From: a virus
Lineage: Duplodnaviria; Heunggongvirae; Uroviricota; Caudoviricetes
Strand: one strand, 5' to 3'
Virus record (IMG/VR): IMGVR_UViG_2579778929_000008
Length of the DNA: 31,781 bases
Of this stretch, positions 1,226-31,781 are shown piece after piece. How positions within the stretch are numbered: the first letter of the stretch is position 1; each line of letters starts with the position of its first letter. The position numbers and the translations under genes were made by a program. The notes under the pieces were generated by a model. That model searched no databases, was not told where the DNA came from, and saw only the letters and a list, made by a program, of their open reading frames with translations.

Positions 1226-1349
1226 TTTATTTTCAACGCGTTTGAAGTTCTGGACGGTGACGGAATAGAATCAAAAATACTTAAGTAGCGCGCAGGGATA
1301 AGAGGGATGGTCCCTTAAAGGGGAGAGCTAATTATCCGGAAGGATTCTG

Positions 1350-1601
1350 ATGATGAACATCGAAGAACTGCGTAAAATTTTTTGTGAAGATGGCCTCTAT
1401 GCTGTGTGCGTTGAAAATGGAAATCTTGTTAGTCATTACCGCATTATGTGTTTGCGAAAGAATGGGGCTGCGTTAATTAATTTTGTGGATGGTCGAGTGA
1501 CAGACGGATTTATCTTGCGCGAAGGTGAGTTTGTCACTTCATTACAGGCACTGAAAGAGATCGGAATAAAAGCAGGCTTTTCAGCTTTTGCAGAAGAATA
1601 A
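1350..1601 (+). CDS. rem: Rem-like small protein (83 aa), Qin-type prophage gene of unknown function
   Basis: GGAAGGA RBS (1338-1344), ATGATG at 1350, TAA at 1599-1601. Position between hokD and ydfU matches K-12 Qin gene order; the name is from memory of that order. Confidence 0.55.
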   Translation: MMNIEELRKIFCEDGLYAVCVENGNLVSHYRIMCLRKNGAALINFVDGRVTDGFILREGEFVTSLQALKEIGIKAGFSAFAEE

Positions 1602-1667
1602 ACTCATCTACAATCTTGCGCGGGGCTGAACTCCCGCTGAGTAACACCGTGCCACCGGAGAAAACCG

Positions 1668-1946
1668 ATGGCACGCAACGTAAAATATTACAATTCTGAT
1701 AATTCGCCCGTTCTTGCCTGCACGCACGAGCGGTATTCTCACGCATTCAAGTCTGAATGGTTCCAACACCCTCCATGCACTGAAGAGCAGGCTGAATGGA
1801 TAATTCAGTGTTACCGCAGGCGCGGATACGAGGTTAAGAAAGCCCTTAGTCTCGACTACCGTCACTGGATAATCTCAGTCAGATTGCCTTACTCCGAACG
1901 CCCACCACGTGCGTCCCGCACTTTCCAGCAACGGATCTGGAGGTAA
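1668..1946 (+). CDS. Hypothetical protein (92 aa), Cys-containing
   Basis: CCGGAG RBS (1655-1660) 7 nt before ATG at 1668; TAA at 1944-1946 immediately before the next gene's RBS and start. Confidence 0.5.
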   Translation: MARNVKYYNSDNSPVLACTHERYSHAFKSEWFQHPPCTEEQAEWIIQCYRRRGYEVKKALSLDYRHWIISVRLPYSERPPRASRTFQQRIWR

Positions 1947-1947
1947 C

Positions 1948-2997
1948 GTGCGGGTATTACTTAGACCTGTTCTGGTGCCTGAGCTTGGGCTGGTGGTCCT
2001 TAAGCCGGGCCGTGAATCCATACAGATATTTCATAATCCTCGAGTGCTGGTGGAACCGGAACCAAAAAGCATGCGTAATCTGCCATCCGGAGTCGTTCCT
2101 GCCGTTGGCCAGCCGCTGGCGGAAGACAAAACATTGCTGCCGTTTTTTAGTAACGAACGGGTGATTCGTGCTGCTGGCGGCGTTGGCGCATTGTCTGACT
2201 GGCTATTACGTCATGTTACATCCTGCCAGTGGCCTAATGGAGATTACCATCACACTGAAACAGTCATTCACCGTTATGGTACCGGCGCAATGGTGTTGTG
2301 TTGGCACTGCGACAACCAACTGCGTGACCAGACATCGGAATCACTGGAGCTGCTTGCTCAACAAAATCTGACAGCATGGGTGATTGACGTCATCCGTCAC
2401 GCAATAAGCGGTACGCAGGAGCGGGAATTATCTTTGGCTGAATTATCCTGGTGGGCGGTCTGCAATCAGGTGGTGGATGCACTACCTGAGGCTGTATCGC
2501 GTCGTTCGCTGGGATTACCAGCGGAAAAAATCTGCTCGGTGTACCGCGAAAGCGACATCGTACCGGGAGAGCAGACCGCCACCAGCATATTGAAACAACG
2601 CACAAAAAATCTTGCACCGTTGCCTTACGCCCACCAGCAACAAAAACTACCACAGGAAAAGACGGTGGTAAGCATCACCGTTGATCCAGAGTCTCCGGAA
2701 TCTTTCATGAAGCTGCCTAAACGTCGCCGCTGGGTTAAGGAGAAATACACACGTTGGGTTAAGACACAGCCGTGTGCTTGCTGCGGTATGCCAGCCGACG
2801 ATCCGCATCATCTGATTGGTCACGGGCAGGGCGGAATGGGAACAAAAGCACATGATCTCTTTGTGTTGCCTTTGTGCAGAAAGCATCACAACGAGCTGCA
2901 TACGGATACAGTGGCATTTGAAGAGAAGTATGGCTCCCAACTGGAGCTGATATTTCGTTTTATCGATCGCGCGCTGGCAATTGGCGTACTGGCGTAA
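1948..2997 (+). CDS. ydfU: YdfU-like DUF968 protein (349 aa) with C-terminal HNH/zinc-finger-like motif
   Basis: GGAGG (1939-1943) then GTG at 1948 (track ORF begins at an upstream GTG, 1909). C-terminus CACCGMPADDPHHLIGHGQGG...CRKHHNELH. The 349-aa length matches my recollection of K-12 YdfU. Confidence 0.7.
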   Translation: MRVLLRPVLVPELGLVVLKPGRESIQIFHNPRVLVEPEPKSMRNLPSGVVPAVGQPLAEDKTLLPFFSNERVIRAAGGVGALSDWLLRHVTSCQWPNGDYHHTETVIHRYGTGAMVLCWHCDNQLRDQTSESLELLAQQNLTAWVIDVIRHAISGTQERELSLAELSWWAVCNQVVDALPEAVSRRSLGLPAEKICSVYRESDIVPGEQTATSILKQRTKNLAPLPYAHQQQKLPQEKTVVSITVDPESPESFMKLPKRRRWVKEKYTRWVKTQPCACCGMPADDPHHLIGHGQGGMGTKAHDLFVLPLCRKHHNELHTDTVAFEEKYGSQLELIFRFIDRALAIGVLA

Positions 2998-3010
2998 GTG
3001 GAGAACGAGC

Positions 3011-3763
3011 ATGAACCTTGAAGCCTTACCAAAATATTACTCCCCAAAATCTCCAAAATTGAGCGATGACGCTCCAGCGACAGGCACCGGTTGTTTAACA
3101 ATTACGGATGTAATGGCAGCGCAGGGGATGGTGCAGTCGAAAGCACCACTTGGGTTGGCCTTATTTCTGGCAAAAGTTGGTGTTCAGGACCCTCAGTTTG
3201 CGATTGAAGGCCTGCTAAATTACGCGATGGCACTGGATAACCCGACATTGAACAAATTGAGTGAAGAAATCCGGTTACAGATTATTCCTTACCTCGTGAG
3301 TTTTGCCTTTGCTGATTACTCCAGGTCTGCGGCAAGTAAGGCTCGCTGTGAGCATTGTTCAGGTACGGGATTTTATAATGTATTGCGCGAAGTGGTGAAA
3401 CACTACAGACGCGGGGAATCTGTAATCAAGGAAGAATGGGTGAAGGAACTATGTCAGCATTGCCATGGTAAGGGCGAAGTCAGCACAGCGTGCAGAGGGT
3501 GTAAGGGTAAAGGGATTGTTCTGGATGAAAAAAGAACCCGGTTTCATGGCGTACCGGTATATAAGATTTGTGGGCGTTGTAATGGAAACCGGTTTAGTCG
3601 TTTACCGACCACGCTGGCACGACGTCATGTCCAGAAGCTGGTACCAGACCTGACCGATTATCAGTGGTATAAGGGGTATGCGGACGTCATTGATAAACTG
3701 GTAACAAAGTGCTGGCAGGAAGAAGCATACGCGGAAGCGCAATTGAGGAAGGTGACGAGATAA
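3011..3763 (+). CDS. quuQ: Late-gene antiterminator Q (250 aa, zinc-binding)
   Basis: GGAG (3000-3003) 7 nt before ATG at 3011 (track ORF starts at TTG 2981). Cys clusters CEHCSGTG...CQHCHGKG...CRGCKGKG are typical of phage Q proteins. Sits immediately upstream of the lysis region. Confidence 0.8.
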
Positions 3764-3795: not shown

Positions 3796-3824
3796 TGCAT
3801 TTTTCAAAAAACATGGATAAGATT
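3796..3824 (+). promoter_or_regulatory. Candidate Q-dependent late promoter (pR'-like): TTGCAT - 17 nt - TAAGAT
   Basis: Weak -35/-10 hexamers about 35 bp downstream of the Q stop, followed about 50 nt later by a strong terminator. This geometry resembles lambda pR'-tR'. Sequence evidence is weak. Confidence 0.25.
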
Positions 3825-3870
3825 TTCTCAACGATGGGCTTTGTGTATCCGACGTTTAGAAAAAAGTAGA

Positions 3871-3896
3871 AAACCCGCTGATAAGCGGGTTTTTGT
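3871..3896 (+). terminator. Intrinsic terminator (tR'-like) downstream of Q
   Basis: AAAA-CCCGC-TGATAA-GCGGG-TTTTT; the hairpin is flanked by an A-run and a T-run, so it could act in both directions. Confidence 0.6.
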
Positions 3897-4269
3897 GCTT
3901 TAAATGGGGCAATAGAGATATTGAATCTCATCCCGGGATAAACATTGGGAGTTGAAGGTCCACGCGAACCATTTATCCGGCAAAATTCCACGCGTAATCC
4001 TGTGGTAATTTCTTCTGCATCTCGAAGATTGAGAGCTGAAACGTGAAGCTGGGCATCGATACGCCATCGGATGGGAATATAAGACCTTTGCTGCTTTTGT
4101 AGTCAAAGTTTTTGACAATTCCTGTCATTTTAGGGGACAGAAAAACTCCTTAATACTGATAACCTGGTGCACCATACACACGTTCCTGGAGAAAACTACT
4201 TTGTTGATAGGGTTGAAGGTGGCTGGATGTCTAAAATAAACATTGCTTCATATGTTCAACTATGAGTTA

Positions 4270-4438
4270 ATGACTGCGTCGGTTTGAAGAACAGACGATA
4301 TACGAAGTAGTTTACTAAAGCAGTTCTCATTTCAGGTGTTATTCACTTATTCCTTCTTTGAGTCTCTCCAATTAAGTACGAAGTCGTTTCTGTTATGCAA
4401 ACCATTTATGCCGAAAGGCTCAAGTTAAGGAATGTAGA
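4270..4438 (+). promoter_or_regulatory. Long cold-shock-type 5' UTR of the cspB-like gene
   Basis: About 170 nt of leader containing TCGGTTTGAAGAACAGACG near its 5' end and GCCGAAAGGC near the start codon, both reminiscent of the cspA-family 5' UTR. Boundaries approximate. Confidence 0.45.
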
Positions 4439-4654
4439 ATGTCAAATAAAATGACTGGTTTAGTAAAATGGTTTAACGCTGATAAAGGTTTCGGCTTTAT
4501 TTCTCCTGTTGATGGTAGTAAAGATGTGTTTGTGCATTTTTCTGCGATTCAGAATGATAATTATCGAACCTTATTTGAAGGTCAAAAGGTTACCTTCTCT
4601 ATAGAGAGTGGTGCTAAAGGTCCTGCAGCAGTAAATGTCATCATTACTGATTAA
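4439..4654 (+). CDS. cspB: CspA-family cold-shock protein (71 aa)
   Basis: [38 protein letters not shown]... carries RNP1 (KGFGFI) and RNP2 (VFVHF) motifs. Assigned cspB from memory and from Qin gene order. Confidence 0.8.
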
Positions 4655-4934
4655 AATTCATCGCTCGTCTGTATACGATAACGAAGAAGGCTGATGCCTG
4701 AGTAGAGATACGGACAGAGTAGTGAATATTGGATCTCTTTAATAAAAAGTAAGGAGGTCCAATACATGAAACAATGGCCAGCATATTTGGCAAAATCTTA
4801 ATCAGGAAAAGTATGCTAACCATTGTGGTGAAGTGCAGGTTTGCTGCATGAATAGTTTTACAGCAGAAGCTAACTGCTGGCATGGCAAAACAAAGTGCGT
4901 AAGTGGATGACTCCCACAAAAAGCACCACAATCT

Positions 4935-4958
4935 CAAACCCGCTCAGGCGGGTTTTTT
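4935..4958 (+). terminator. Intrinsic terminator
   Basis: CCCGC-TCAG-GCGGG hairpin (4938-4951) followed by TTTTTT (4952-4957). Confidence 0.55.
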
Positions 4959-5017
4959 ATTATCTGCTTTAAATATATTATTAAAATATAAAAAATACTT
5001 GTTACTAATAAAATCAA

Positions 5018-5188
5018 TCAGGCTACAGCTTTAAGATTTGTCTGGAATACTTTGTTGCAATGAGGGCAGATCAAAAGGGCACCTTTTTGTACTCTTGAAA
5101 AACTGTGTTCTGACTCTTGGGTGCAGTTTGGGCAGGAACATTTAACGAGATAATTACGGCGTGATTTTGAGTCTTTACGTTCTGACAT
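5018..5188 (-). CDS. Small zinc-ribbon protein (56 aa)
   Basis: On the minus strand, AGGAAAA precedes ATG at 5188. Product MSERKDSKSRRNYLVKCSCPNCTQESEHSFSRVQKGALLICPHCNKVF... has CxCPxC...CPxC. Track ORF 5018..5239 begins at an upstream in-frame start with no RBS. Confidence 0.5.
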   Translation of the reverse strand: MSERKDSKSRRNYLVKCSCPNCTQESEHSFSRVQKGALLICPHCNKVFQTNLKAVA

Positions 5189-5407
5189 AGGCTTTTCCTG
5201 TATAAATGGCCGTATACAGTACACTAAATATGAAAACATTTCTCGTATTATTATTTTATATATAACTTTCTTTCAAAATAATTACTCACATTTTTAATGT
5301 GTATGTTTCTTTAGCGCCGTTGAGAACAACGTGTGCTGTCAAAACTACCCCGTAGACTCCGATCTTTTCAAACATATTGCACCATCCGTGTACATCGGGG
5401 TGAGGAT

Positions 5408-5623
5408 ATGAAATCAATGGATAAGTTAACAACAGGTGTTGCCTATGGCACATCGGCGGGTAATGCTGGTTTCTGGGCATTGCAGTTACTCGATAAAGTA
5501 ACTCCGTCACAGTGGGCTGCAATCGGTGTGCTGGGTAGCCTGGTTTTTGGCCTGCTGACGTATCTGACAAATCTTTATTTCAAGATTAAAGAAGACAGGC
5601 GTAAGGCTGCGAGAGGAGAGTAA
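5408..5623 (+). CDS. essQ: Class II holin / pinholin (S21-like) with dual-start motif
   Basis: [71 protein letters not shown] closely resembles the phage 21 S holin as recalled. Met1-Lys-Ser-Met4 gives the antiholin/holin dual start. Track ORF starts further upstream (5333). Confidence 0.8.
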
Positions 5624-5627
5624 TCCA

Positions 5628-5935
5628 ATGACTCAAGACTATGAACTGGTTGTGAAAGGAGTCCGTAATTTTGAGAATAAAGTTACGGTAACTGTAGCCT
5701 TACAGGACAAAGAACGCTTTGACGGTGAAATTTTTGGCCTGGATGTCGCCATGGACCGTGTTGAAGGAGCTGCGCTGGAGTTTTATGAGGCAGCAGCCAG
5801 AAGGAGCGTCCGGCAAGTCTTCCTGGAAGTAGCAGAAAAATTGTCAGAAAAAGTTGAGTCTTATCTGCAGCATCAGTACTCCTTTAAGATTGAAAATCCT
5901 GCCAATAAGCACGAGCGTCCTCATCATAAATATAT

Positions 5936-5939: not shown

Positions 5940-6963
<1,024 letters not shown>

Positions 6964-7325
6964 GGTAATATTAAATCGGAACATTTACATCGCGGAATGT
7001 AAAATTTAAATAAAAAGGACTCTTCCATGAGCCAAAATTCCTGAAATCTTAAGGGTAAGATAAAAGGTCTTAATCAGAATGACACGTTTTATTAATAAAT
7101 AAAGCTATTCTTTCATTGCTGTGTTTTTCTTTACAAAAGTAATCCTTGCTATGGGTGGTTAATCATGCGTTAATGGTGTTCTGGTTTGTTACAAATTTAT
7201 CTGAAGCAGTCATTGTTATAATTTTATTATTTGTACCTCTTGAGATTTCCTTGTTGGTTTTTCTCTCTGATATTTTTTTTCGGACCATTCTGCCCAAGGG
7301 CTAATTTCTTCAAAAGGTAATAATT

Positions 7326-7538
7326 ATGTCTAACAAAATGACTGGTTTAGTGAAATGGTTTAACCCTGAAAAAGGTTTTGGTTTCATCACGCCGAAAGAT
7401 GGCAGCAAAGATGTGTTTGTCCATTTCTCAGCAATTCAGAGCAACGATTTCAAAACATTAACTGAGAATCAGGAAGTTGAATTTGGTATTGAGAACGGAC
7501 CTAAAGGTCCTGCCGCTGTTCATGTAGTGGCGCTTTGA
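7326..7538 (+). CDS. cspI: CspA-family cold-shock protein (70 aa)
   Basis: [70 protein letters not shown] matches my recollection of CspI; preceded by a long AT-rich leader. Confidence 0.8.
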
Positions 7539-7548
7539 GGTAGACAAT

Positions 7549-7737
7549 ATTACAAACCATATTCACTTTAGATGCCCGTGTTGTCATGGTTCCCAGTATA
7601 GAACATCATCTTTTGATGTTTCTGACATGAATCCTTTCGGGGCAAAATGTATCTTTTGTAAATCAATGATGATTACATTTGATAATATTTCACAATACTT
7701 AAATGCCAGCCGTCTGTCGTTGGATTTAAAAAAGTGA
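7549..7737 (+). CDS. Zinc-ribbon-like ORF with no canonical start codon (possible ATT start or decayed gene)
   Basis: Open frame from 7528 to TGA at 7735-7737 encodes ...HIHFRCPCCHGSQYRTSSFDVSDMNPFGAKCIFCKSMMITFDNISQYLNASRLSLDLKK. No ATG/GTG/TTG lies upstream of the CPCC motif; GAGG (7537-7540) sits 8 nt before an ATT at 7549. First in-frame ATG is at 7627. Confidence 0.25.
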   Translation: MTNHIHFRCPCCHGSQYRTSSFDVSDMNPFGAKCIFCKSMMITFDNISQYLNASRLSLDLKK

Positions 7738-7744
7738 AAATGAA

Positions 7745-7766
7745 GGCTCCTTCGGGAGCTTTTTTG
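7745..7766 (+). terminator. Intrinsic terminator downstream of cspI
   Basis: GGCTCC-TTCG-GGAGCT hairpin followed by TTTTTT. Confidence 0.6.
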
Positions 7767-7809
7767 CTTGGTATCTATTCGATGGATACTCACATACTAC
7801 GGTAACATC

Positions 7810-8040
7810 ATGAAAAAAATCATAGTTTTTTTTAACTCTGAACCAGCAGTGGTAGTGCCAGCGATGACTGGAGTTAACACCATCATGCGTGAATATCCAA
7901 ATGGCGAAAAAACACACCTTACTGTAATGGCCGCAGGGTTTCCATCTCTGACCGGAGATCATAAAGTCATTTATGTAGCCGCGGATCGACATGTTACTTC
8001 AGAAGAAATTCTGGAAGCAGCAATAAGGCTCTTGAGTTGA
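7810..8040 (+). CDS. Hypothetical small protein (76 aa)
   Basis: ATG at 7810, TGA at 8038-8040. Product MKKIIVFFNSEPAVVVPAMTGVNTIMREYPNGEKTHLTVMAAGFPSLTGDHKVIYVAADRHVTSEEILEAAIRLLS has protein-like composition. No strong SD; track ORF begins upstream at 7768. Confidence 0.4.
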   Translation: MKKIIVFFNSEPAVVVPAMTGVNTIMREYPNGEKTHLTVMAAGFPSLTGDHKVIYVAADRHVTSEEILEAAIRLLS

Positions 8041-8211
8041 TTTGATGCTATTGTATTGATAATTCAGGAAAATTCTCTTTGTCTGTTTGTGTAAAATTTA
8101 GACTATCGTATGTTGATTATTGCGATGTTTCATCTTATCTTTTACACGTTTGCACCATATAATCGACTTACTGTGTAACTGGAAAGTCATAACAGACTAA
8201 AAGAGGAAATG

Positions 8212-8385
8212 ATGAATATTGAAAACTTAAAAACAAAAGCAGAAGCAGATATTTCTGAATATATAACAAAAAAAATTATTGAACTTAAGAAAAAGACCGG
8301 GAAAGAAGTTACCAGTATTCAGTTTACCGCACGGGAAAAAATGACGGGTCTTGAAAGCTATGATGTCAAGATTAATTTAATCTGA
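8212..8385 (+). CDS. gnsB: GnsA/GnsB-family small protein (57 aa)
   Basis: AAGAGGA (8201-8207) then ATG at 8212 (an in-frame ATG also at 8209). Product MNIENLKTKAEADISEYITKKIIELKKKTGKEVTSIQFTAREKMTGLESYDVKINLI resembles GnsB as recalled. Absent from the ORF track because it is under 60 aa. Confidence 0.75.
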   Translation: MNIENLKTKAEADISEYITKKIIELKKKTGKEVTSIQFTAREKMTGLESYDVKINLI

Positions 8386-8412
8386 TGTATTCAATAATAA
8401 AATTTATCCATA

Positions 8413-8438
8413 AACCTCGTTTTTACGGGGTTTTGTTA
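8413..8438 (+). terminator. Probable intrinsic terminator after gnsB
   Basis: AACCTCG-TTTTTA-CGGGGTT hairpin (one G-U pair) followed by a T-rich tract. Confidence 0.4.
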
Positions 8439-8536
8439 TATTTGAATGGTTCCGAATATCTAAATCACAATTGTTGATGGTTTTTATTAAACCAATGCAG
8501 TCCGGCTCAGGAGTGAGAGAAGCCGGACGTTATGGT

Positions 8537-8947
8537 TTAGCGTGGTAAGATCTGTGTAGTTTTCTGGATGCTTTCAGTAAATAGTAATGAGTTATCAAAG
8601 GCATAGTAATATCTTTGGTGTTCCTGGATATTTGTAACCCATCGGAAAACTCCTGCTTTAGCAAGATTTTCCCTGTATTGTTGAAATGTGATTTCTTTTG
8701 ATTTCAACTTATTATAGGAGGTCTCTATAAGATGTTTGTTTCTGGAGAATTTAACATTTACAACCTTTTTGAGTCCTTTTACTAACACTATGTTGTCGTT
8801 TTCTAACACAATGTGAATATTATCTGTGGCTAAATAGTAAATATAAAGTGAGACATTGTGACGTTTTAGCTCAGAATAAAATAATTCACAGTTTAAATCT
8901 TTACGCACTTGATCGAATATTTCTTTAAAAATGGCAGCCTGAGCCAT
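8537..8947 (-). CDS. ydfO: YdfO-like DUF1398 protein (136 aa)
   Basis: Minus-strand ORF; GGAAGG RBS precedes ATG at 8947 (track ORF starts 5 codons upstream at 8962 without RBS). Product [47 protein letters not shown]... Confidence 0.7.
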
Positions 8948-9247
8948 TGGTAAACCTTCCATGTGATACGATGGCGCGTAGTTAGCATTATCGTGTTTAT
9001 TGTTTCAATCTGGTCTGACCTCTTTGTGTTTTGTTGATGATTTATGTCAAATATTAAGCCTGTTTTTGATGAATAGTGTTGATTGCGTAACAAAATTGAG
9101 CCTTGCTGGCATCCAGGAGGGATATGCAACCGACAGATGTATGTAAGGTCGATGTACTCAAACTTTCATACTTTTCCTCTTTTATGCAGTAAGATTTGAA
9201 GTAATATTTTAACCGCTAGATGACGAGCAAACGCATGGAGCGACAAA

Positions 9248-9454
9248 ATGAATAAAGAACAATCTGCTGATGAACTCTCGTTGGATCTGATTCGTGTAAA
9301 AAATATGCTTAATAGCACCATTTCTATGAGTTACCCGGATGTTGTAATTGCATGTATAGAACATCAGGTGTCTCTGGAAGCATTCAGGGCAATTGAGGCA
9401 GCGTTGGTGAAGCACGATAAGAATTCGAAGGATTATTCCCTGGTGGTTGACTGA
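9248..9454 (+). CDS. Hypothetical small acidic protein (68 aa), possibly ynfO-like
   Basis: GGAG (9237-9240) 7 nt before ATG at 9248; TGA at 9452-9454. Confidence 0.45.
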
Positions 9455-9631
9455 GCACCATAACTGCTAATCATTCAAACTATTTCACCTGTGACAGAGT
9501 CAATATCGCATTCTGTCACTGTCAGGCTAATACAGAGCTGCAATTCAACTACTGCAATGTCCTCGTAATTAGGTGAATTTACAATATCGTCCTGTTCGGA
9601 TGCCGGTTGCATTGCTGAATATGAGGCATTT

Positions 9632-10000
9632 ATGCGTGACTCGCCAGGTCCCGGCTATGTGCATTTCCCTGACTGGCTGGGGAGCTGGTTTTACGACGAA
9701 CTGACGTATGAAGAGCGGAGCAGTGACGGGAAATGGAGTAAGCCGGGTCGCGGTGCCAACGAAGCTTTTGACCTGATGGTGTATGCCGAGGCTCTGGTCA
9801 TTCTGCATGGATACGAAAAGATCCGCTGGCCGGATGCACCGGAGTGGGCGAGCCGGGAAACCTGGCTGGAGTGTGTCCCGGACAGTACCGAACCGTCACC
9901 CACACCGGAACCGGTATCCACGCCTGTTAAAAAACAAAAACGGAAGAAAACAGTAACTGACGATGTTAACCCCTGGCTGACTTCCGGAGGATGGTTATGA
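9632..10000 (+). pseudogene. Terminase large subunit (lambda gpA-like), C-terminal ~120-codon remnant only
   Basis: ...DGKWSKPGRGANEAFDLMVYAEALVILHGYEKIRW... resembles the extreme C-terminus of lambda-family large terminases. No upstream terminase reading frame and no small-subunit gene. Sits directly before W and portal as in lambda. Confidence 0.6.
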
Positions 10001-10209
10001 ACCAGAATGATATCGAAGCCATGATTCAGCGTTATACGGAAGCTGAAATGGCGGTGCTGGACGGAAAATCCGTCACCTTTAATGGTCAGCAGATGACCAT
10101 GGAAAACTTATCTGAGATCCGGCAGGGACGGCAGGAGTGGGAGCGCCGCCTTGCGGCTCTGATTACACGACGACGGGGGCATCCCGGGTACCGGCTGGCG
10201 AGGTTCTGA
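9991..10209 (+). CDS. W: Head-tail joining protein W-like
   Basis: CCGGAGG RBS then ATG at 9991; 72 aa; stop overlaps portal start (TGATG at 10207-10211). Position between terminase and portal as in lambda. Confidence 0.7.
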   Translation: MVMNQNDIEAMIQRYTEAEMAVLDGKSVTFNGQQMTMENLSEIRQGRQEWERRLAALITRRRGHPGYRLARF

Positions 10210-11717
10210 TGGCAATTCTTGATGATGTGATTGGCGTTTTTTCACCAGGATGGAAAGCGGCAAGGCTGCGTTCCCGTGCGGTGATCCAGGCTTATGAGGC
10301 CGTAAAAACGACACGGACACACAAAGCCCGGCGGGAAAACCGAACTGCCGACCAGTTAAGCCAGTACGGGGCCGTGTCGTTACGTGAGCAGGCCCGTTAC
10401 CTTGATAACAACCACGATCTGGTTATTGGTGTATTTGACAAGCTGGAAGAACGGGTGGTGGGGAAAAACGGGATTATTGTCGAGCCACATCCGGTATTAC
10501 GCAATGGGGCCATTGCCCGTGATCTGGCAGCGGAGATACGCACCCGATGGAGTGAATGGTCTGTCAGTCCGGAAGTCACCGGGCAGTTTACCCGTCCGAT
10601 GCTGGAACGTCTGATGCTGCGTACCTGGCTGCGCGATGGTGAGGTGTTTGCCCAGATGGTTTCCGGGCACATAAACAGCCTGACGCCTTCTGCCGGTGTT
10701 CATTTCTGGCTGGAGGCGCTCGAGCCGGACTTTATTCCCATGACCAGTGATGAGAGCAACAGGCTGAATCAGGGCGTGTTTGTTGATGACTGGGGGCGTC
10801 CCGAAAAATATCTGGTGTATAAAAGCCGTCCCGTATCCGGGCGGCAGATGGAAACCAAAGAAGTGGATGCAGAGCGAATGCTGCATCTTAAATTTGTTCG
10901 CCGTCTGCACCAGATGCGCGGGACGTCTTTGTTGTCCGGTGTGCTGATCCGCCTCAGTGCCCTGAAAGAGTATGAAGATTCTGAGCTGACTGCAGCAAGG
11001 ATCGCCGCTGCTCTGGGGATGTACATCCGGAAAGGCGACGGGCAGAGCTATGAACCGGATGGTAATGGCAGCAAGGAGAATGAACGCGAGCTTACCATTC
11101 AGCCAGGCATTATTTACGACGATCTGAAACCCGGCGAAGAAATCGGAATGGTGAAGTCGGATCGTCCCAATCCTAACCTTGAAACTTTTCGTAATGGTCA
11201 GTTGCGTGCCGTGGCGGCGGGCAGTCGTCTGAGTTTTTCCAGTACGGCACGCAACTATAACGGCACTTACAGCGCCCAGCGTCAGGAGCTGGTTGAATCC
11301 ACTGATGGCTACCTGATCCTGCAGGACTGGTTTATTGGTGCCGTCACCCGCCCGATGTATCGTGCCTGGCTGAAACAGGCTGTGGCATCCGGTGTTATCA
11401 GGCTACCCCGCGATCTTGATCGTTCTTCACTGTATACCGCGGTGTATTCCGGACCGGTGATGCCGTGGATTGACCCTGTTAAGGAGGCTGAGGCCTGGAA
11501 AATTCAGATTCGTGGTGGAGCGGCGACAGAATCAGACTGGGTACGTGCAGGTGGTCGTAATCCGGATGATGTCAAACGTCGGCGCAAGGCCGAAATTGAT
11601 GAAAACCGCAAGCTGGATCTGGTATTTGATACCGATCCGGCCAGTGATAAAGGAGGCAGCAGTGCCGCAACGAAACGACAGGAGCCGCAGCACACCGACG
11701 ACCAGTCCGAAGAATAA
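10209..11717 (+). CDS. B: Portal protein (lambda gpB-like), 502 aa
   Basis: ATG at 10209 coupled to the W stop (track ORF begins upstream at 10137 in the same frame). Size and gene order as lambda B. Confidence 0.85.
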   Translation: MAILDDVIGVFSPGWKAARLRSRAVIQAYEAVKTTRTHKARRENRTADQLSQYGAVSLREQARYLDNNHDLVIGVFDKLEERVVGKNGIIVEPHPVLRNGAIARDLAAEIRTRWSEWSVSPEVTGQFTRPMLERLMLRTWLRDGEVFAQMVSGHINSLTPSAGVHFWLEALEPDFIPMTSDESNRLNQGVFVDDWGRPEKYLVYKSRPVSGRQMETKEVDAERMLHLKFVRRLHQMRGTSLLSGVLIRLSALKEYEDSELTAARIAAALGMYIRKGDGQSYEPDGNGSKENERELTIQPGIIYDDLKPGEEIGMVKSDRPNPNLETFRNGQLRAVAAGSRLSFSSTARNYNGTYSAQRQELVESTDGYLILQDWFIGAVTRPMYRAWLKQAVASGVIRLPRDLDRSSLYTAVYSGPVMPWIDPVKEAEAWKIQIRGGAATESDWVRAGGRNPDDVKRRRKAEIDENRKLDLVFDTDPASDKGGSSAATKRQEPQHTDDQSEE

Positions 11718-26449: not shown

Positions 26450-29400
26450 ATGGCAGTAAAAATTTCAGGTGTACTGAAAGACGGCACAGGAAAACCGGTA
26501 CAGAACTGCACAATCCAGCTGAAAGCAAAACGTAACAGTACCACGGTGGTGGTGAACACGCTGGCCTCAGAAAATCCGGATGAAGCCGGGCGTTACAGCA
26601 TGGACGTTGAGTACGGTCAGTACAGCGTTATTCTGTTGGTGGAAGGATTCCCGCCGTCACATGCCGGGACCATCACCGTGTATGAAGATTCCCGACCCGG
26701 TACGCTGAATGATTTTCTCGGTTCCATGACGGAGGATGATGCCCGTCCTGAGGCACTGCGCCGTTTTGAACTGATGGTGGAAGAGGTGGCGCGTAACGCG
26801 TCCGCGGTGGCACAGAACACGGCAGCCGCGAAGAAGTCAGCCAGCGATGCCAGCACATCAGCCCGTGAGGCGGCAACCCATGCGACTGATGCTGCAGGCT
26901 CAGCACGCGCAGCCAGAACGTCAGCCGGACAGGCCGCGATGTCGGCTCAGTCAGCGTCTTCCAGCGCAGGAACGGCATCGACAAAGGCCAGTGAAGCAGC
27001 GAAAAGTGCTGCTGCTGCAGAGTCATCAAAAAGCGCGGCAGCTACCAGTGCCGGTGCGGCGAAAACGTCAGAAACGAATGCGGCAGCGTCACAAAAATCG
27101 GCAGCCACTTCTGCATCCACAGCGACCACGAAGGCGTCAGAAGCTGCCACCTCAGCACGGGATGCGGCGGCCTCAAAAGAGGCAGCGAAATCATCAGAAA
27201 CGAATGCATCATCAAGTGCCAGTAGTGCAGCTTCCTCGGCAACGGCGGCAGGAAATTCCGCGAAGGCGGCAAAAACGTCCGAGACGAACGCTAAGTCTTC
27301 TGAAACAGCAGCGGGACAGAGCGCCTCAGCTGCGGCAGGTTCAAAAACAGCGGCTGCGTCGTCTGCCAGTGCTGCGTCAACAAGTGCCGGGCAGGCCTCA
27401 GCCAGTGCCACCGCCGCCGGAAAATCGGCAGAAAGCGCCGCATCATCCGCTTCAACAGCCACAACGAAGGCTGGCAAAGCCACTGAGCAAGCCACTGCAG
27501 CAGCGAGGTCTGCTTCTGCAGCAAAAACCTCTGAAACAAATGCAAAGACTTCAGCAGACAATGCTGCTTCCTCTAAGGCGGCAGCCGCATCGTCCGCTGG
27601 TTCAGCGGCGTCATCGGCATCATCTGCGTCTGCTTCAAAAGATGAGGCGACCAGACAAGCGTCAGCAGCGAAAGGTAGTGCCACGACAGCAACAACGAAA
27701 GCATCAGAGGCGGCAGGCAGTGCGACGGCTGCATCTCAGAGCAAAGTTGCTGCTGAATCCGCGGCAACGCGTGCCGAAACAGCGGCAAAACGGGCAGAGG
27801 ATATTGCTGATGCCGTATCTCTGGAAGATGCAAGTACGACGAAAAAGGGGATAGTACAGCTCAGCAGTGCGACCAACAGTACGTCTGAAACGCTGGCGGC
27901 AACGCCAAAGGCAGTAAAATCAGCCTATGACAATGCAGAGAAACGTCTGCAGAAAGACCAGAACGGCGCTGATATACCCGATAAGGGACGCTTCCTGAAC
28001 AACATTAACGCGGTCAGTAAAACAGACTTTGCTGATAAGCGTGGTATGCGTTATGTGCGGGTTAACGCTCCTGCAGGTGCAACATCTGGAAAATATTACC
28101 CTGTTGTTGTTATGCGTTCTGCTGGCTCAGTAAGCGAACTGGCATCAAGGGTCATTATCACCACGGCAACGCGAACCGCAGGCGATCCGATGAATAACTG
28201 CGAGTTTAACGGATTTGTTATGCCTGGTGGCTGGACTGACAGGGGGCGTTATGCTTATGGAATGTTCTGGCAATATCAAAACAATGAACGAGCCATCCAC
28301 TCAATAATGATGAGTAATAAGGGCGATGATTTGCGCTCTGTGTTCTATGTTGATGGCGCTGCTTTCCCTGTTTTTGCGTTTATCGAAGATGGCCTGTCAA
28401 TATCCGCACCTGGTGCTGATCTCGTTGTTAATGATACGACCTATAAGTTTGGGGCAACAAATCCAGCGACTGAATGTATCGCGGCGGACGTTATCCTTGA
28501 TTTTAAGAGTGGGCGTGGTTTTTATGAGTCTCATTCGTTAATCGTTAACGATAACTTGTCGTGCAAAAAACTTTTTGCCACAGACGAAATTGTAGCGCGT
28601 GGTGGTAATCAGATTCGAATGATAGGTGGGGAGTATGGTGCATTATGGCGTAATGATGGTGCTAAAACTTACCTGCTGCTTACCAATCAAGGTGATGTTT
28701 ATGGTGGCTGGAATACATTAAGACCGTTTGCTATTGATAACGCAACCGGCGAACTGGTTATTGGAACCAAACTGTCCGCAAGTCTGAACGGTAATGCATT
28801 AACAGCAACAAAGCTGCAAACGCCAAGACGGGTTTCTGGTGTTGAGTTTGATGGTTCCAAAGATATTACTTTAACCGCCGCGCATGTTGCTGCTTTTGCC
28901 AGAAGAGCAACAAATACATATGCCGATGCGGATGGGGGCGTTCCATGGAATGCCGAATCAGGCGCTTACAATGTCACCCGCTCTGGCGACAGCTATATTC
29001 TGGTTAACTTCTATACCGGAGTCGGAAGTTGCCGGACATTGCAGATGAAGGCGCATTACAGAAATGGTGGTCTGTTCTACCGTTCTTCAAGAGACGGTTA
29101 TGGTTTTGAGGATGACTGGGCAGAAGTTTATACCTCGAAAAATCTTCCACCAGAAAGCTACCCAGTCGGCGCACCAATCCCGTGGCCATCAGATACCGTT
29201 CCGTCTGGTTATGCCCTGATGCAGGGGCAGACTTTTGACAAATCTGCTTACCCGAAACTTGCAGTGGCTTATCCGTCAGGCGTTATTCCTGATATGCGTG
29301 GCTGGACGATTAAGGGCAAGCCCGCCAGTGATCGAGCCGTATTGTCTCAGGAACAGGACGGCATTAAATCGCACACCCACAGCGCCAGCGCATCCAGTAC

Positions 29401-29863
29401 GGATTTGGGGACGAAAACCACATCGTCGTTTGATTACGGCACTAAATCCACGAATAACACCGGGGCGCATACGCACAGTCTGAGTGGCTCTACGGGGTCT
29501 GCCGGTGATCATACTCATGGTAATGGTATTCGTTGGCCAGGAGGCGGCGGTTCTGCGTTAGCATTTTATGATGGCGGTGGGTTCACTTATGTCCAGGATT
29601 CACAGTATCAAGTAAGGCCGGAGACTTCTTCCTATAGATCGTATTATCAACGTATTCAGACACAGTCAGCAGGTGCTCATACCCACTCGCTGTCTGGTAC
29701 TGCAGCAAGTTCTGGCGCACATGCACATACTGTAGGTATTGGTGCGCATACGCACTCCGTTGCGATTGGTTCACATGGACACACCATCACCGTTAACGCT
29801 GCGGGTAACGCGGAAAACACCGTCAAAAACATCGCATTTAACTATATTGTGAGGCTTGCATAA
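26450..29863 (+). CDS. stf: Side tail fiber protein (Stf), 1137 aa
   Basis: ATG at 26450 (track starts at GTG 26444). N-terminus [37 protein letters not shown]... and C-terminus ...GAHTHSLSG...[22 protein letters not shown] match lambda Stf as recalled. Long Ala/Ser/Thr-rich repeats; His-rich GxHxH motifs near the C-terminus. Confidence 0.85.
26800..27800 (+). repeat. Imperfect tandem coding repeats inside stf (Ala/Ser/Thr-rich; units such as AAKTSETNA / [13 protein letters not shown])
   Basis: Recurrent nucleotide motifs (GCGGCAAAAACGTCAGAAACGAATGC and variants) produce low-complexity ORFs in all three forward and reverse frames (track ORFs 26847..27854 and 26947..27684). Confidence 0.6.
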
Positions 29864-30447
29864 TGGCATTCAGAATGAGTGAACAAGCACGGACCATAAA
29901 AATTTATAATCTGCTGGCCGGAACTAATGAATTTATTGGTGAAGGTGACGCATATATTCCGCCTCATACAGGTCTGCCAGCAAACAGTACCGATATTGCA
30001 CCACCAGATATTCCTGCTGGCTTTGTGGCTGTTTTCAACAGTGATGAGGCATCGTGGCATCTCGTTGAAGACCATCGGGGTAAAACGGTTTATGACGTAG
30101 CGTCAGGGGGCGAGTTATTTATTTCTGAACTCGGTCCGTTACCGGAAAATGTTACCTGGTTATCGCCGGAAGGGGAGTTTCAGAAGTGGAACGGCACAGC
30201 CTGGGTGAAGGATACGGAAGCAGAAAAACTGTTCCGGATCCGGGAGGCGGAAGAAACAAAAAACAGCCTGATGCAGGTAGCCAGCGAGCATATTGCGCCG
30301 CTTCAGGATGCTGCAGATCTGGAAATTGCAACAGAGGAAGAAATCTCGTTGCTGGAAGCCTGGAAAAAGTATCGGGTGTTGCTGAACCGTGTTGATACAT
30401 CAACTGCACCTGATATTGAGTGGCCTACGAACCCTGTCAGGGAGTAA
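29863..30447 (+). CDS. tfa: Tail fiber assembly protein Tfa (194 aa)
   Basis: Start overlaps the stf stop (TAATG). [79 protein letters not shown]... matches lambda Tfa as recalled. Confidence 0.9.
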
Positions 30448-30496
30448 TCATTGGGATTATGCCGCAGCACGTCTTAAGCAAGAACGTGCTGCGGTT
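30292..30496. repeat. Direct repeat copy 1 (~205 bp; tfa 3' end plus ~50 bp downstream including a 10-bp-stem palindrome)
   Basis: ATTGCGCC...GTTGATACATCAACTGCACCTGATATTGAGTGGCCT...CCTGTCAGGGAGTAATCATTGGGATTATGCCGCAG...CGTGCTGCGGTT recurs at 31341-31546 with roughly 85-90 percent identity by eye. Confidence 0.7.
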
Positions 30497-30501
30497 GGAT
30501 G

Positions 30502-31158
30502 CTATTTTTTCCCTGAAGCGGAAAACATTACTACAGTACCTTGAACCTTGGTTTTAACATTCTCGAAATGCTCTGAGAGTATATGTGTTAAGCCTTCTTC
30601 GGAATCTTTTGTGTTTGAAAAGATGCCTTTCTGATTGTAAATGCGCATCAGTTTTTGACCGAAGCTATTGTGCACAACTCCATCGCCAAGAATTGTGGCT
30701 CCGTATAGAGTTCCATCGTCAGTTAAGGCCTGCGCCGCATTGCGTATTACACAGCTTTTTGTAGATATATTTCCAGGCAGGCAGTGAAGAAGGTAAAACA
30801 TGGAAATGGAATCAAATTGACCATGTAACGCCGCGGGATAAGGTTCAAAAACATCATGGCTAATTTTATGTTTAATTTTTGATTCCCCAGCCCTTGTAGA
30901 TGCCGCGTTCAGGCTAGCTTCGTTCAAATCCATTAAAGATATCAGACTACTCTCAGGTACGTGAGTAAGGTAAAACCCAGTTCCAACACCAATATCCAGA
31001 TGGTTGTTACCTACATGTTCCAGAAAGTGTGGAAGAAGGTGTTCCTTTGTAGGACATCCCCATGCAAGCCGATTTGATACTCCCAAAACCCACCAGTCAT
31101 AAAGCTTTAGGGTAAGTGGTGTGTAAATTTTAGCCCCATCATCTGTGTTTTTTTTCAT
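30502..31158 (-). CDS. Class I SAM-dependent methyltransferase (218 aa), substrate unknown; AT-rich moron
   Basis: Minus-strand ORF; GGTGA RBS 5 nt before ATG at 31158 (track start 31170 has no RBS). Motif I ...HLDIGVGTGFYL... in a Rossmann-fold context. No DPPY/NPPY motif, so probably not an amino-methylating DNA methyltransferase. Markedly AT-richer than flanking phage genes (by eye). Confidence 0.7.
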   Translation of the reverse strand: MKKNTDDGAKIYTPLTLKLYDWWVLGVSNRLAWGCPTKEHLLPHFLEHVGNNHLDIGVGTGFYLTHVPESSLISLMDLNEASLNAASTRAGESKIKHKISHDVFEPYPAALHGQFDSISMFYLLHCLPGNISTKSCVIRNAAQALTDDGTLYGATILGDGVVHNSFGQKLMRIYNQKGIFSNTKDSEEGLTHILSEHFENVKTKVQGTVVMFSASGKK

Positions 31159-31226
31159 TGATTTCACCATGTTATAGTTTTATTTGTGAATTAAATCAAT
31201 TATGGCGATGAATTACAAGGGGTTAA

Positions 31227-31496
31227 ATGCTGCCGCAGCATAGCGATATTGAAATAGCCTGGTATGCTTCGATACAGCAGGAGCCGAATGGCTGGAAGAC
31301 CGTCACCACACAGTTCTACATCCAGGAATTCAGTGAGTATATTGCGCCACTGCAGGATGCTGTAGATCTGGAAATCGCAACGGAGGAAGAAAGATCGTTG
31401 CTGGAGGCATGGAATAAATATCGGGTATTGTTGAATCGTGTTGATACATCAACTGCACCTGATATTGAGTGGCCTGCAAATCCTGTCAGGGAGTAA
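31227..31496 (+). pseudogene. Second, truncated tfa-like ORF (89 codons; C-terminal domain only)
   Basis: C-terminal 55 aa (...[51 protein letters not shown]) are near-identical to the Tfa C-terminus at 30286-30447; N-terminal 35 aa are unrelated. AAGGGG RBS precedes the ATG, so it may still be translated. Confidence 0.55.
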
Positions 31497-31546
31497 TCAT
31501 TGGGATTATGCCGCAGACACGTCGTATGCAGGAACGTGCTGCGGTT
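31341..31546. repeat. Direct repeat copy 2
   Basis: See copy 1 (30292-30496). Confidence 0.7.
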
Positions 31547-31610
31547 AGTTTGTGAGCTTTCGATAGTGGTTGTTATTTTTGCCCTTATTTGTTCCGGAGG
31601 CCATGGTTCA

Positions 31611-31781
31611 ATGGTCCGTCTGCCCCCTATGGTGATGTCAGCAAAATCAGCCACTGCGCGAACCACAATAGCCCGGGAAGATGCTGAAGATCACCAGGTA
31701 AAGCTATCAGCGCAGAAACTGGAAGAACTGCTCGCATCAATGGTTAAGGATGAGGTTGATCGCAATGATGGGATTTATTGA
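31611..31781 (+). CDS. Hypothetical small protein (56 aa)
   Basis: GGAGG (31596-31600) about 10 nt before ATG at 31611; TGA at 31779-31781, the last bases of the window. Product MVRLPPMVMSAKSATARTTIAREDAEDHQVKLSAQKLEELLASMVKDEVDRNDGIY. Track ORF starts upstream at TTG 31500. Confidence 0.3.
   Translation: MVRLPPMVMSAKSATARTTIAREDAEDHQVKLSAQKLEELLASMVKDEVDRNDGIY

Follow-up and report, generated by a model that had tools for sequence, protein, structure and literature searches.

A probable moron of lambdoid Escherichia coli prophages: the ybcY-type methyltransferase module between two tfa 3' ends

We analysed a stretch of 31,781 nucleotides of tailed-phage DNA (IMG/VR record IMGVR_UViG_2579778929_000008; hereafter the window), near whose right end a minus-strand gene for a class I S-adenosylmethionine (SAM)-dependent methyltransferase lies between two direct copies of the 3' end of tfa, the tail fibre assembly gene. 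We conclude with high confidence that this cassette is already known and annotated: it is the ybcY-type cargo gene, functionally uncharacterised, that follows the tail-fibre genes in most lambda-like prophages of E. coli. The cassette is variable cargo bounded by tfa 3' ends, and the corresponding empty site was found in other genomes. The explanation that we consider likely is that of an independently transcribed, probably H-NS-silenced moron which encodes a small-molecule methyltransferase and is moved or removed by recombination at tfa ends.

Results

Identity and prevalence of the cassette

A full-length and a truncated tfa on the plus strand, with the methyltransferase gene between them on the minus strand, make up the order that RefSeq annotates in the cryptic prophage DLP12 of E. 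coli K-12 as tfaD (+), ybcY (-, b0562, pseudogene) and tfaX (+). Gene order, strands and repeats are the same in both, the sequences are collinear at 96.7% nucleotide identity over positions 30009-31473, and the promoter hexamers listed for ybcY (PMC3946193) are present in the window. The two prophages differ in the state of the gene, which carries a frameshift and is a pseudogene in K-12 but is undamaged in the window, and also in what follows the module: DLP12 continues into appY-ompT at the argU site, while the window prophage ends at ompW beside yciE and trp. The latter end was judged from near-identical genomes, in which a DUF4376 pseudogene is followed within ~500 bp by truncated ompW, yciE and trp.

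The whole arrangement, 1,919 bp counted from tfa up to the end of the window, was found in 1,126 of 5,426 complete E. coli genomes. The 823-bp unique segment enclosed by the repeats, counted at 95% identity or more, is present in 3,844 of them (~71%), with at most 4 copies per genome. Of the two junctions, the left one (tfa end, hairpin and methyltransferase 3' end) is unbroken in 3,066 genomes, and the right one (spacer and tfa fragment) in 3,438. Full-length copies of the methyltransferase, at 98-100% identity, occur in 14 isolated Escherichia phage records, and the temperate phages ev243, 2G7b, Kati, Turner and those of the PhiR series carry the gene. At the protein level it is 100% identical to the full-length cluster P0002 (6,589 members); truncated clusters also occur, one of 161 aa having 445 members. 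The methyltransferase matches phrog_2132 over positions 1-218 of 218 (E 3.9e-157). Both this protein and the tfaX-like open reading frame (ORF) beside it, which belongs to phrog_2341, are members end to end of PHROGs families labelled 'unknown function'.

The preliminary description of the window, made from its letters alone, had allowed for the arrangement being a conserved and already characterised part of its prophage family. The first half of this holds, as the ~71% of E. coli genomes and DLP12 show; the second does not, the gene being uncharacterised. No functional study of ybcY or of its RefSeq protein accessions was found in the literature, where the gene figures in a promoter/H-NS table entry (PMC3946193), in a negative Keio phenotype (PMC2408971) and in a synteny remark. 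The E. coli cassette also appears, at 98.9% identity over 99% of its length, at 53289-54102 of the plasmid record HM037272.1, which is labelled Bacillus thuringiensis CT-43; this is most likely contamination or mis-assembly.

Two diverged tfa ends and the segment between them

The repeat search returned a direct two-copy repeat in two blocks, one of 197 nt at 88% identity (30271-30467 versus 31320-31516) and one of 29 nt at 90% (30468-30496 versus 31518-31546), separated by a 1-nt indel. Gapped BLASTN joined the copies in one alignment (limits in Table 1) with 193 of 216 positions identical (89%), 1 gap and an E value of 4e-77. In each copy, the final ~165 nt of the tfa frame and its stop codon are followed by a hairpin. 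Narrower limits had been proposed before (30292-30496 and 31341-31546); they fall inside those of the BLASTN alignment, by which the similarity is significant. Over 56 codons, the copies showed 12 synonymous versus 6 non-synonymous differences.

The unique segment between the repeats measures about 823-833 bp (823 bp when taken as 30497-31319). Its content of guanine plus cytosine (GC) is 41.4%, lower than that of the window (50.4%), of tfa (48.4%) and of stf, the side tail fibre gene (52.1%), and so bears out the visibly lower value noticed at the outset. This drop is clear but not extreme, as 12.7% of the equal-sized windows in the stretch are as low. The hairpin at 30461-30495, examined in a 76-nt context, has a minimum free energy of -34.4 kcal/mol on the plus strand and -27 on the minus strand, with z about -5 on both. 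On the plus strand the z-scores are -5.3 for this hairpin and -3.8 for its weaker copy at 31510-31544. Neither tRNA genes nor tandem repeats were detected in the region.

An alignment of seven contexts to the window showed a constant core, which consists of the hairpin, the methyltransferase and its upstream spacer (30462-31256), and usually goes on through the tfa fragment to about 31451-31474. To its left stands a full tfa in the window, UTI89 and DLP12; in phage ev243 another set of tail-fibre genes comes first, followed by no more than the remains of a tfa 3' end. In phage Kati, tfa is followed by an invertase and other small ORFs, in O157 SRCC 1675 by a manganese catalase gene and yciE/F/G-like genes, and in strain 605 the left flank is an IS3-family element. 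E2348/69 also has other cargo or tail-fibre genes beside the core. Even where tfa itself is displaced (phage Kati, O157) the hairpin is kept. Copy 1 varies from one context to another, between 85% and 97% identity, and in some contexts nothing but its hairpin is left; copy 2 and the cassette are constant, the enclosed cassette being 98-100% identical among E. coli copies. In O157 SRCC 1675 (locus 1295-3508) the catalase and the yciE/yciF/yciG-like stress genes lie between tfa and the hairpin-methyltransferase core, indicating that several cargo genes can be stacked at one tfa-downstream position.

Two other kinds of mobile structure were considered and rejected. An invertible tail-fibre segment of the Mu G, P1 C or e14 P kind is contradicted by the absence of inverted repeats in 28000-31781, where the repeats are direct, and by the absence of a RefSeq invertase between tfa and the prophage end; the invertase that phage Kati carries downstream of tfa, ahead of the cassette, does not belong to the module. 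An insertion sequence or transposon is contradicted by the lack of a transposase gene and of terminal inverted repeats.

The empty site

As a probe for the empty site we used the predicted product of repeat-to-repeat deletion, namely the tfa body joined to copy 2 and the downstream flank. Twenty genomes contained this product as a continuous stretch of 651 nt with 90-97% identity. The two of them that were examined have it within a prophage of the order J-lom-stf-tfa-DUF4376, again at the ompW/yciE/trp site, and the occupied and the empty form differ by exactly one repeat plus the cassette, that is 1,049 bp. At the positions that distinguish the two copies, the tfa gene at the empty site is copy-1-like on its 5' side and copy-2-like from about 30395-30420 onward, hairpin included. 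Such a copy 1-to-copy 2 chimera is what a crossover inside the repeat leaves behind. The earlier suggestion that a cargo gene had been captured by homologous exchange at tfa 3' ends is thus supported by the empty site in 20 genomes and by the chimeric tfa 3' end, and we have high confidence that recombination between the flanking tfa ends moves and removes the module.

The repeats could also have arisen as a local duplication at the time of cassette insertion, through a long target duplication or replication slippage, in which case they would not represent two tfa alleles. In favour of this, the repeats are direct, lie right beside the insert and share the hairpin at which they end. This origin seems improbable to us: the copies differ at 23 of 216 positions, mostly synonymously, while the cassette that they enclose is 98-100% identical among E. 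coli, and for this reason the repeats are better regarded as two diverged tfa alleles than as a fresh duplication. The variability of copy 1, set against a constant cassette and copy 2, and the lack of transposase and terminal inverted repeats point in the same direction, in favour of two tfa alleles brought together when phages recombined.

Fold and family of the methyltransferase

The alignment of 36 homologs begins at codon 5 of the ORF, which corresponds to the ATG at 31158, with GGTGA ahead of it. The glycine-rich motif I (GxGxG) is present as HLDIGVGTG, residues 57-65 of the 222-aa ORF, and D59, G61, G63, T64 and G65 are invariant in the homologs. Four Pfam models score above their cut-offs: Methyltransf_12 (37.5 bits, cut-off 30), Methyltransf_23 (29, cut-off 27), Methyltransf_25 (27.7, cut-off 27) and Methyltransf_11 (24.6, cut-off 21.2). 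The AlphaFold2 model, computed with these 36 homologs, has a mean predicted local distance difference test (pLDDT) score of 90.4 and a predicted template modelling score of 0.86, and shows the alternating strand-helix pattern; the alternating beta-alpha fold with a seven-stranded sheet that defines class I is present in the model. The 218-aa minus-strand gene with motif I, as first described, is therefore retained with its ATG and four Pfam matches, and its SAM-binding fold, for which structure prediction had been proposed as a check, is predicted confidently (pLDDT 90.4). From this model we are confident that the protein would fold as a small-molecule-type class I SAM-dependent methyltransferase.

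Across the 36 homologs, 60 alignment columns are invariant. Those outside the SAM motifs include Y16, P18, YDWWVL (24-29), N33, AW (36-37), C39 and H57, followed by H105-D106, H129-C130, N168 and YNxKGIF (178-184). The family comprises 414 clusters (50% identity) at E<=1e-30, mostly of ~220 aa with full-length matches, and reaches lichen-forming fungi. The N-terminal extensions of its longer members hold no informative extra domain; a single RCC1 fusion was seen, in a fungal gene model.

The best structural match is to PmtA, the bacterial phosphatidylethanolamine N-methyltransferase. Rt-PmtA (PDB 8ys9) was the top Foldseek match, with 207 versus 218 aa and a template modelling score of 0.61-0.66, and both proteins have an N-terminal helix with aromatic residues, which here are the invariant Y16, Y24, W26 and W27. 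In Rt-PmtA the catalytic residue is Tyr10 on the N-terminal helix, and the phosphate is contacted by His117, Ser120 and His147 (PMC11446283). As a guess from the sequence, Y16/Y24, H129 and H167 may be candidate counterparts of these residues. By profile the similarity is weak: the Legionella-type PmtA equivalog NF045882, whose cut-off is 390 bits, gave 15.7 bits with the window protein and a best E value of 1.5e-7 among the 36 members, 26 of which matched it weakly.

Other profiles were matched in the same manner, CpaM by 30 of the 36 members, RquA by 23, BioC by 14, UbiG by 10 and UbiE by 9, all NCBIfam matches being far under their cut-offs. For the quinone equivalogs, RquA reached 16.9 bits versus the required 175, and the UbiG and UbiE matches had E values of 3.8e-5 or higher. 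Sequence searches against the PDB, with the single protein or the family profile, gave weak and generic matches (JHAMT, 7e-6; UbiG, about 2e-3 or 1.7e-3). The methyltransferase possibly has a lipid- or quinone-directed activity; our confidence in any particular substrate is low.

Homologs outside lambdoid prophages

In Salmonella and Enterobacter, homologs of 56-68% identity are found as single genes at ordinary sites of the chromosome and have no neighbours in common. Between Salmonella, Enterobacter, Citrobacter and Aeromonas the gene neighbours are not conserved and give no operon clue. Other homologs are flanked by insertion sequences, lie on a ccdAB/kfrA plasmid contig, stand beside perC or belong to a sodC/dinI/sopA region. 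Among Klebsiella plasmid records, 603 carry a 65%-identical homolog; in the hypervirulence-type IncFIB plasmids the distance from this gene is ~2 kb to rmpD and ~4 kb to iroN (e.g. K. pneumoniae CP035906.1, 7002-7655).

The pK2044 protein BAH65943.1, encoded beside rmpA, belongs to the same family (65% identity over 215 of 218 residues without gaps, E 9e-107). Like the window gene, its gene is a stand-alone, uncharacterised one inside horizontally acquired cargo, in this case virulence cargo; it differs in being plasmid-borne and in lacking tfa repeats. In the literature BAH65943.1 figures solely as a statistical marker for liver-abscess or hypermucoviscous strains, by virtue of its linkage to rmpA and iro (PMC5126061, PMC9372168, PMC9846069). 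The recurrence of the family as stand-alone cargo in acquired fitness or virulence regions argues against a role tied to tail fibres.

The same observations bear on the proposal that the methyltransferase serves the phage itself, by modifying nucleic acid (anti-restriction, or rRNA or tRNA methylation) or by methylating Stf or Tfa, which would explain why the gene sits next to tfa. We regard such a role as doubtful at best. The homologs of 56-68% identity have no tail-fibre or phage genes nearby, and the adjacency to tfa is explained by tfa ends serving as recombination homology. The gene is opposite to the late operon strand and has separate promoter matches. A regular-expression search over the 218 aa found neither the DNA-methylase motif IV ([DNS]PP[YFW]) nor the C5 motif PCQ, in agreement with the lack of DNA-methyltransferase motifs reported at first; no DNA-methylase Pfam or NCBIfam model matched, and a protein of this size leaves no room for a target-recognition domain. 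Among the PADLOC defence models, only mad2 gave a marginal, partial match (E 0.0096, 12.8 bits), which is not meaningful. A moron-encoded enzyme acting on a small molecule accounts better for these data.

Selection on the methyltransferase gene

The ratio of non-synonymous to synonymous substitution rates (dN/dS) is 0.11-0.21 when the gene is compared with homologs of 65-90% identity; judged from these sequences, the methyltransferase is under purifying selection. This speaks against the cassette being a non-functional passenger, a decaying remnant that hitch-hikes with recombinogenic tfa ends. Some facts do suit a passenger: K-12 ybcY is a pseudogene through a frameshift, truncated clusters exist (e.g. 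the one of 161 aa with 445 members), the adjoining tfa fragment and DUF4376 gene are both pseudogenes, the ybcY/tfaX spacer carries an HNS flag (PMC3946193), and the Keio ybcY mutant had no phenotype in the one assay found (PMC2408971). On the other hand, the low dN/dS extends across the family, the full-length identical cluster has 6,589 members versus hundreds for the truncated ones, and the gene is intact in isolated phages. Moreover, the 60 invariant columns include the SAM-binding motifs, and in other genera a singleton gene is maintained at non-mobile chromosomal sites. A passenger is hence unlikely in our view, and a functional moron is preferred.

Expression signals

Two candidate sigma-70 promoters were found on the minus strand, upstream of the methyltransferase. 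The first, whose coordinates were checked, is TTGATT (31199-31194), a 17-nt spacer and TATAAC (31176-31171); the second, from a consensus scan, is TTAACC (31226-31221), a 16-nt spacer and CATAAT (31204-31199). The RpoD-holoenzyme catalogue obtained in vitro for K-12 by genomic systematic evolution of ligands by exponential enrichment (SELEX) lists TTGATT-17-TATAAC as the ybcY promoter (PMC3946193), and the table flags the ybcY/tfaX spacer HNS (PMC3946193). On the plus strand, a T-run begins ~8 nt past the hairpin at 30461-30495. These signals suggest that the methyltransferase may be transcribed independently of the late operon, and its expression in lysogens is predicted with moderate confidence.

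Neighbouring genes and other features of the window

The features of the tail-fibre region are collected in Table 1. The lambda-type stf-tfa pair recognised in the preliminary description is corroborated by its domains (phage_tail_N, Gp34_trimer and Collar, then Caudo_TAP). So is the second tfa-like ORF with an unrelated 5' end: the last 56 residues of this 89-aa ORF are those of tfa (Caudo_TAP positions 75-130 of 131), and the ~35 residues at its N-terminus have no relation to tfa. In PHROGs, residues 3-37 align with the beginning of phrog_3893, a family of small phage ORFs, and residues 29-87 with the tfa families; RefSeq labels the ORF a tfa pseudogene lacking its N-terminus. The small ORF noted at 31611-31781 exists on the plus strand; it is not a free-standing gene, being a fragment of a DUF4376 pseudogene. 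RefSeq annotates the DUF4376 pseudogene over this interval (UTI89, NMBU-W13E19, 2016-02-324), and its matches fall inside tail-fibre-like families (phrog_7703, positions 185-239 of 268; phrog_1141, positions 111-165 of 194).

Table 1. Positions of features in the tail-fibre region of the window
Feature	Position	Strand	Remarks
stf, side tail fibre gene, 1139 aa	26444..29863	+	Pfam phage_tail_N, Gp34_trimer, Collar, Phage_fiber
tfa, full-length tail fibre assembly protein, 194 aa	29863..30447	+	Pfam Caudo_TAP E 5e-44; RefSeq 'tail fiber assembly protein'
Direct repeat copy 1	30282..30496	+	tfa 3' end, stop codon, hairpin; BLASTN versus copy 2
Strong hairpin, terminator-like	30461..30495		Separates tfa from the methyltransferase gene, the two being convergent; in every case the left limit of the cassette
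ybcY-type class I SAM-dependent methyltransferase, 218 aa	30502..31158	-	ORF reaches 31170 (222 aa)
AT-rich candidate promoter region of the methyltransferase	31171..31226	-	Two candidate sigma-70 matches
tfaX-like chimeric ORF, 89 aa	31227..31496	+	phrog_2341 end to end, E 4e-61
Direct repeat copy 2	31330..31546	+	Truncated tfa 3' end, stop codon, degenerate hairpin 31510-31544
DUF4376 / tail-fibre-like pseudogene fragment	31611..31781	+	Runs past the window end; right flank kept at occupied and empty sites

Two RefSeq annotations at the edges of the methyltransferase gene were looked at. The 45-aa 'hypothetical protein' WP_001309429.1, at 30420-30557 on the plus strand, overlaps the tfa stop, the hairpin and the methyltransferase 3' end; it is probably a spurious call, because it overlaps both genes and the terminator-like hairpin. 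In strain 605, 80 nt equivalent to 31245-31324 on the minus strand are labelled as a frameshifted DinI-family fragment. This assignment was rejected, since neither BLASTP against Citrobacter DinI nor PHROGs returned anything for the 27-aa piece. For the spacer at 31171-31329, the phrog_3893-like start of the 89-aa ORF is the sole origin that was traced.

The stf protein has 1139 aa here, compared with 1035 aa in UTI89 and 1056 aa in TUM14664. An Ala/Ser/Thr-rich stretch at about residues 120-480 gives rise to long spurious ORFs, e.g. 26847-27854 (+) and 26947-27684 (-); Tandem Repeats Finder detected no tandem array in it.

Two other parts of the window are more AT-rich than the methyltransferase cassette, 6601-9600 and 3801-5700, with GC minima over 500 bp of 0.31 and 0.35 respectively. 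The former lies between the lysis genes and a terminase remnant and has a minus-strand gene of the ybcV-like DUF1398 kind (8537-8962); the latter has the Q antiterminator gene (2981-3763) on one side and the lysis cassette on the other. Each of them is probably another moron or regulatory region. The terminase large subunit is represented only by a 122-aa C-terminal piece (9632-10000; GpA_nuclease positions 223-294 of 294), followed by a lambda-type portal gene at 10137-11717. No candidate ORF of at least 90 aa for the rest of this subunit was found upstream of the piece, and from its gene content the window prophage looks packaging-defective.

Discussion

Morons are extra, independently transcribed genes of lambdoid phages, such as lom, bor, sodC and ompT, a concept of Hendrix and colleagues. 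The ybcY module resembles them in several respects. Some prophages have it between two genes that directly adjoin each other in their siblings: at the same locus, DUF4376 comes straight after tfa in 20 genomes, and 1,126 have the cassette. Its GC content differs from that of its surroundings, and it lies on the opposite strand, where it has two candidate promoters and a hairpin that may serve as terminator. Across hosts it is located in the region from the tail fibres to the attachment site, beside lom, ompT, appY, catalase or sodC genes. It departs from the type at its edges, which consist of about 215 bp of homeologous tfa sequence and not of clean promoter and terminator boundaries.

Several points weigh against an independently expressed, functional moron. 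The start expected from TTGATT-17-TATAAC would lie only about 6 nt ahead of the ATG. The hairpin, 5-6 nt past the methyltransferase stop, has no U-run on the minus strand, so that its terminator role there is only a candidate one. The HNS flag on the ybcY/tfaX spacer (PMC3946193) suggests silencing in laboratory conditions, and K-12 ybcY, the source of the promoter data, is the frameshifted copy; no in-vivo start site, expression or activity of an intact ybcY copy was found in the literature. As the E. coli copies are 98-100% identical, dN/dS is not measurable within the species. Finally, the 20 empty sites may represent either the ancestral state or deletions.

With these points taken into account, a moron still appears to us the likely explanation, and it may operate as follows. 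Two different tfa alleles would supply the repeats and act as portable homology, so that RecA- or Red-type recombination with other lambdoid phages could lead to gain, loss or transfer of the module. The methyltransferase would most likely act in the lysogen, as accessory cargo of the lysogenic-conversion type. Its most likely class of substrate would be a small, probably hydrophobic or membrane-associated metabolite or a lipid head group; DNA, the tail fibre and Tfa are most likely not its targets.

A more far-reaching possibility, which we put forward as speculative and rather improbable, is that the ybcY family constitutes a new class of stand-alone lipid or membrane-metabolite methyltransferases, acting for example on the phosphatidylethanolamine head group, a quinone-like molecule or a host-derived hydrophobic compound, and delivered by mobile elements as a conversion or virulence factor. 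If so, the carriers of this new lipid-methyltransferase class would be, in E. coli, lambdoid prophages (~71% of genomes) and, in hypervirulent Klebsiella, the rmpA/iro region of plasmids, and ybcY would change envelope properties, stress tolerance or host interaction upon relief of H-NS silencing.

The occupied and empty alleles of one prophage at one attachment site provide an unusually clean natural example of tfa 3' ends as portable homology. The enzyme encoded by ybcY is among the most prevalent uncharacterised accessory genes of E. coli, many genomes having more than one copy, and identification of its substrate would settle whether such a widespread cargo gene of prophages plays a physiological or virulence role at all.

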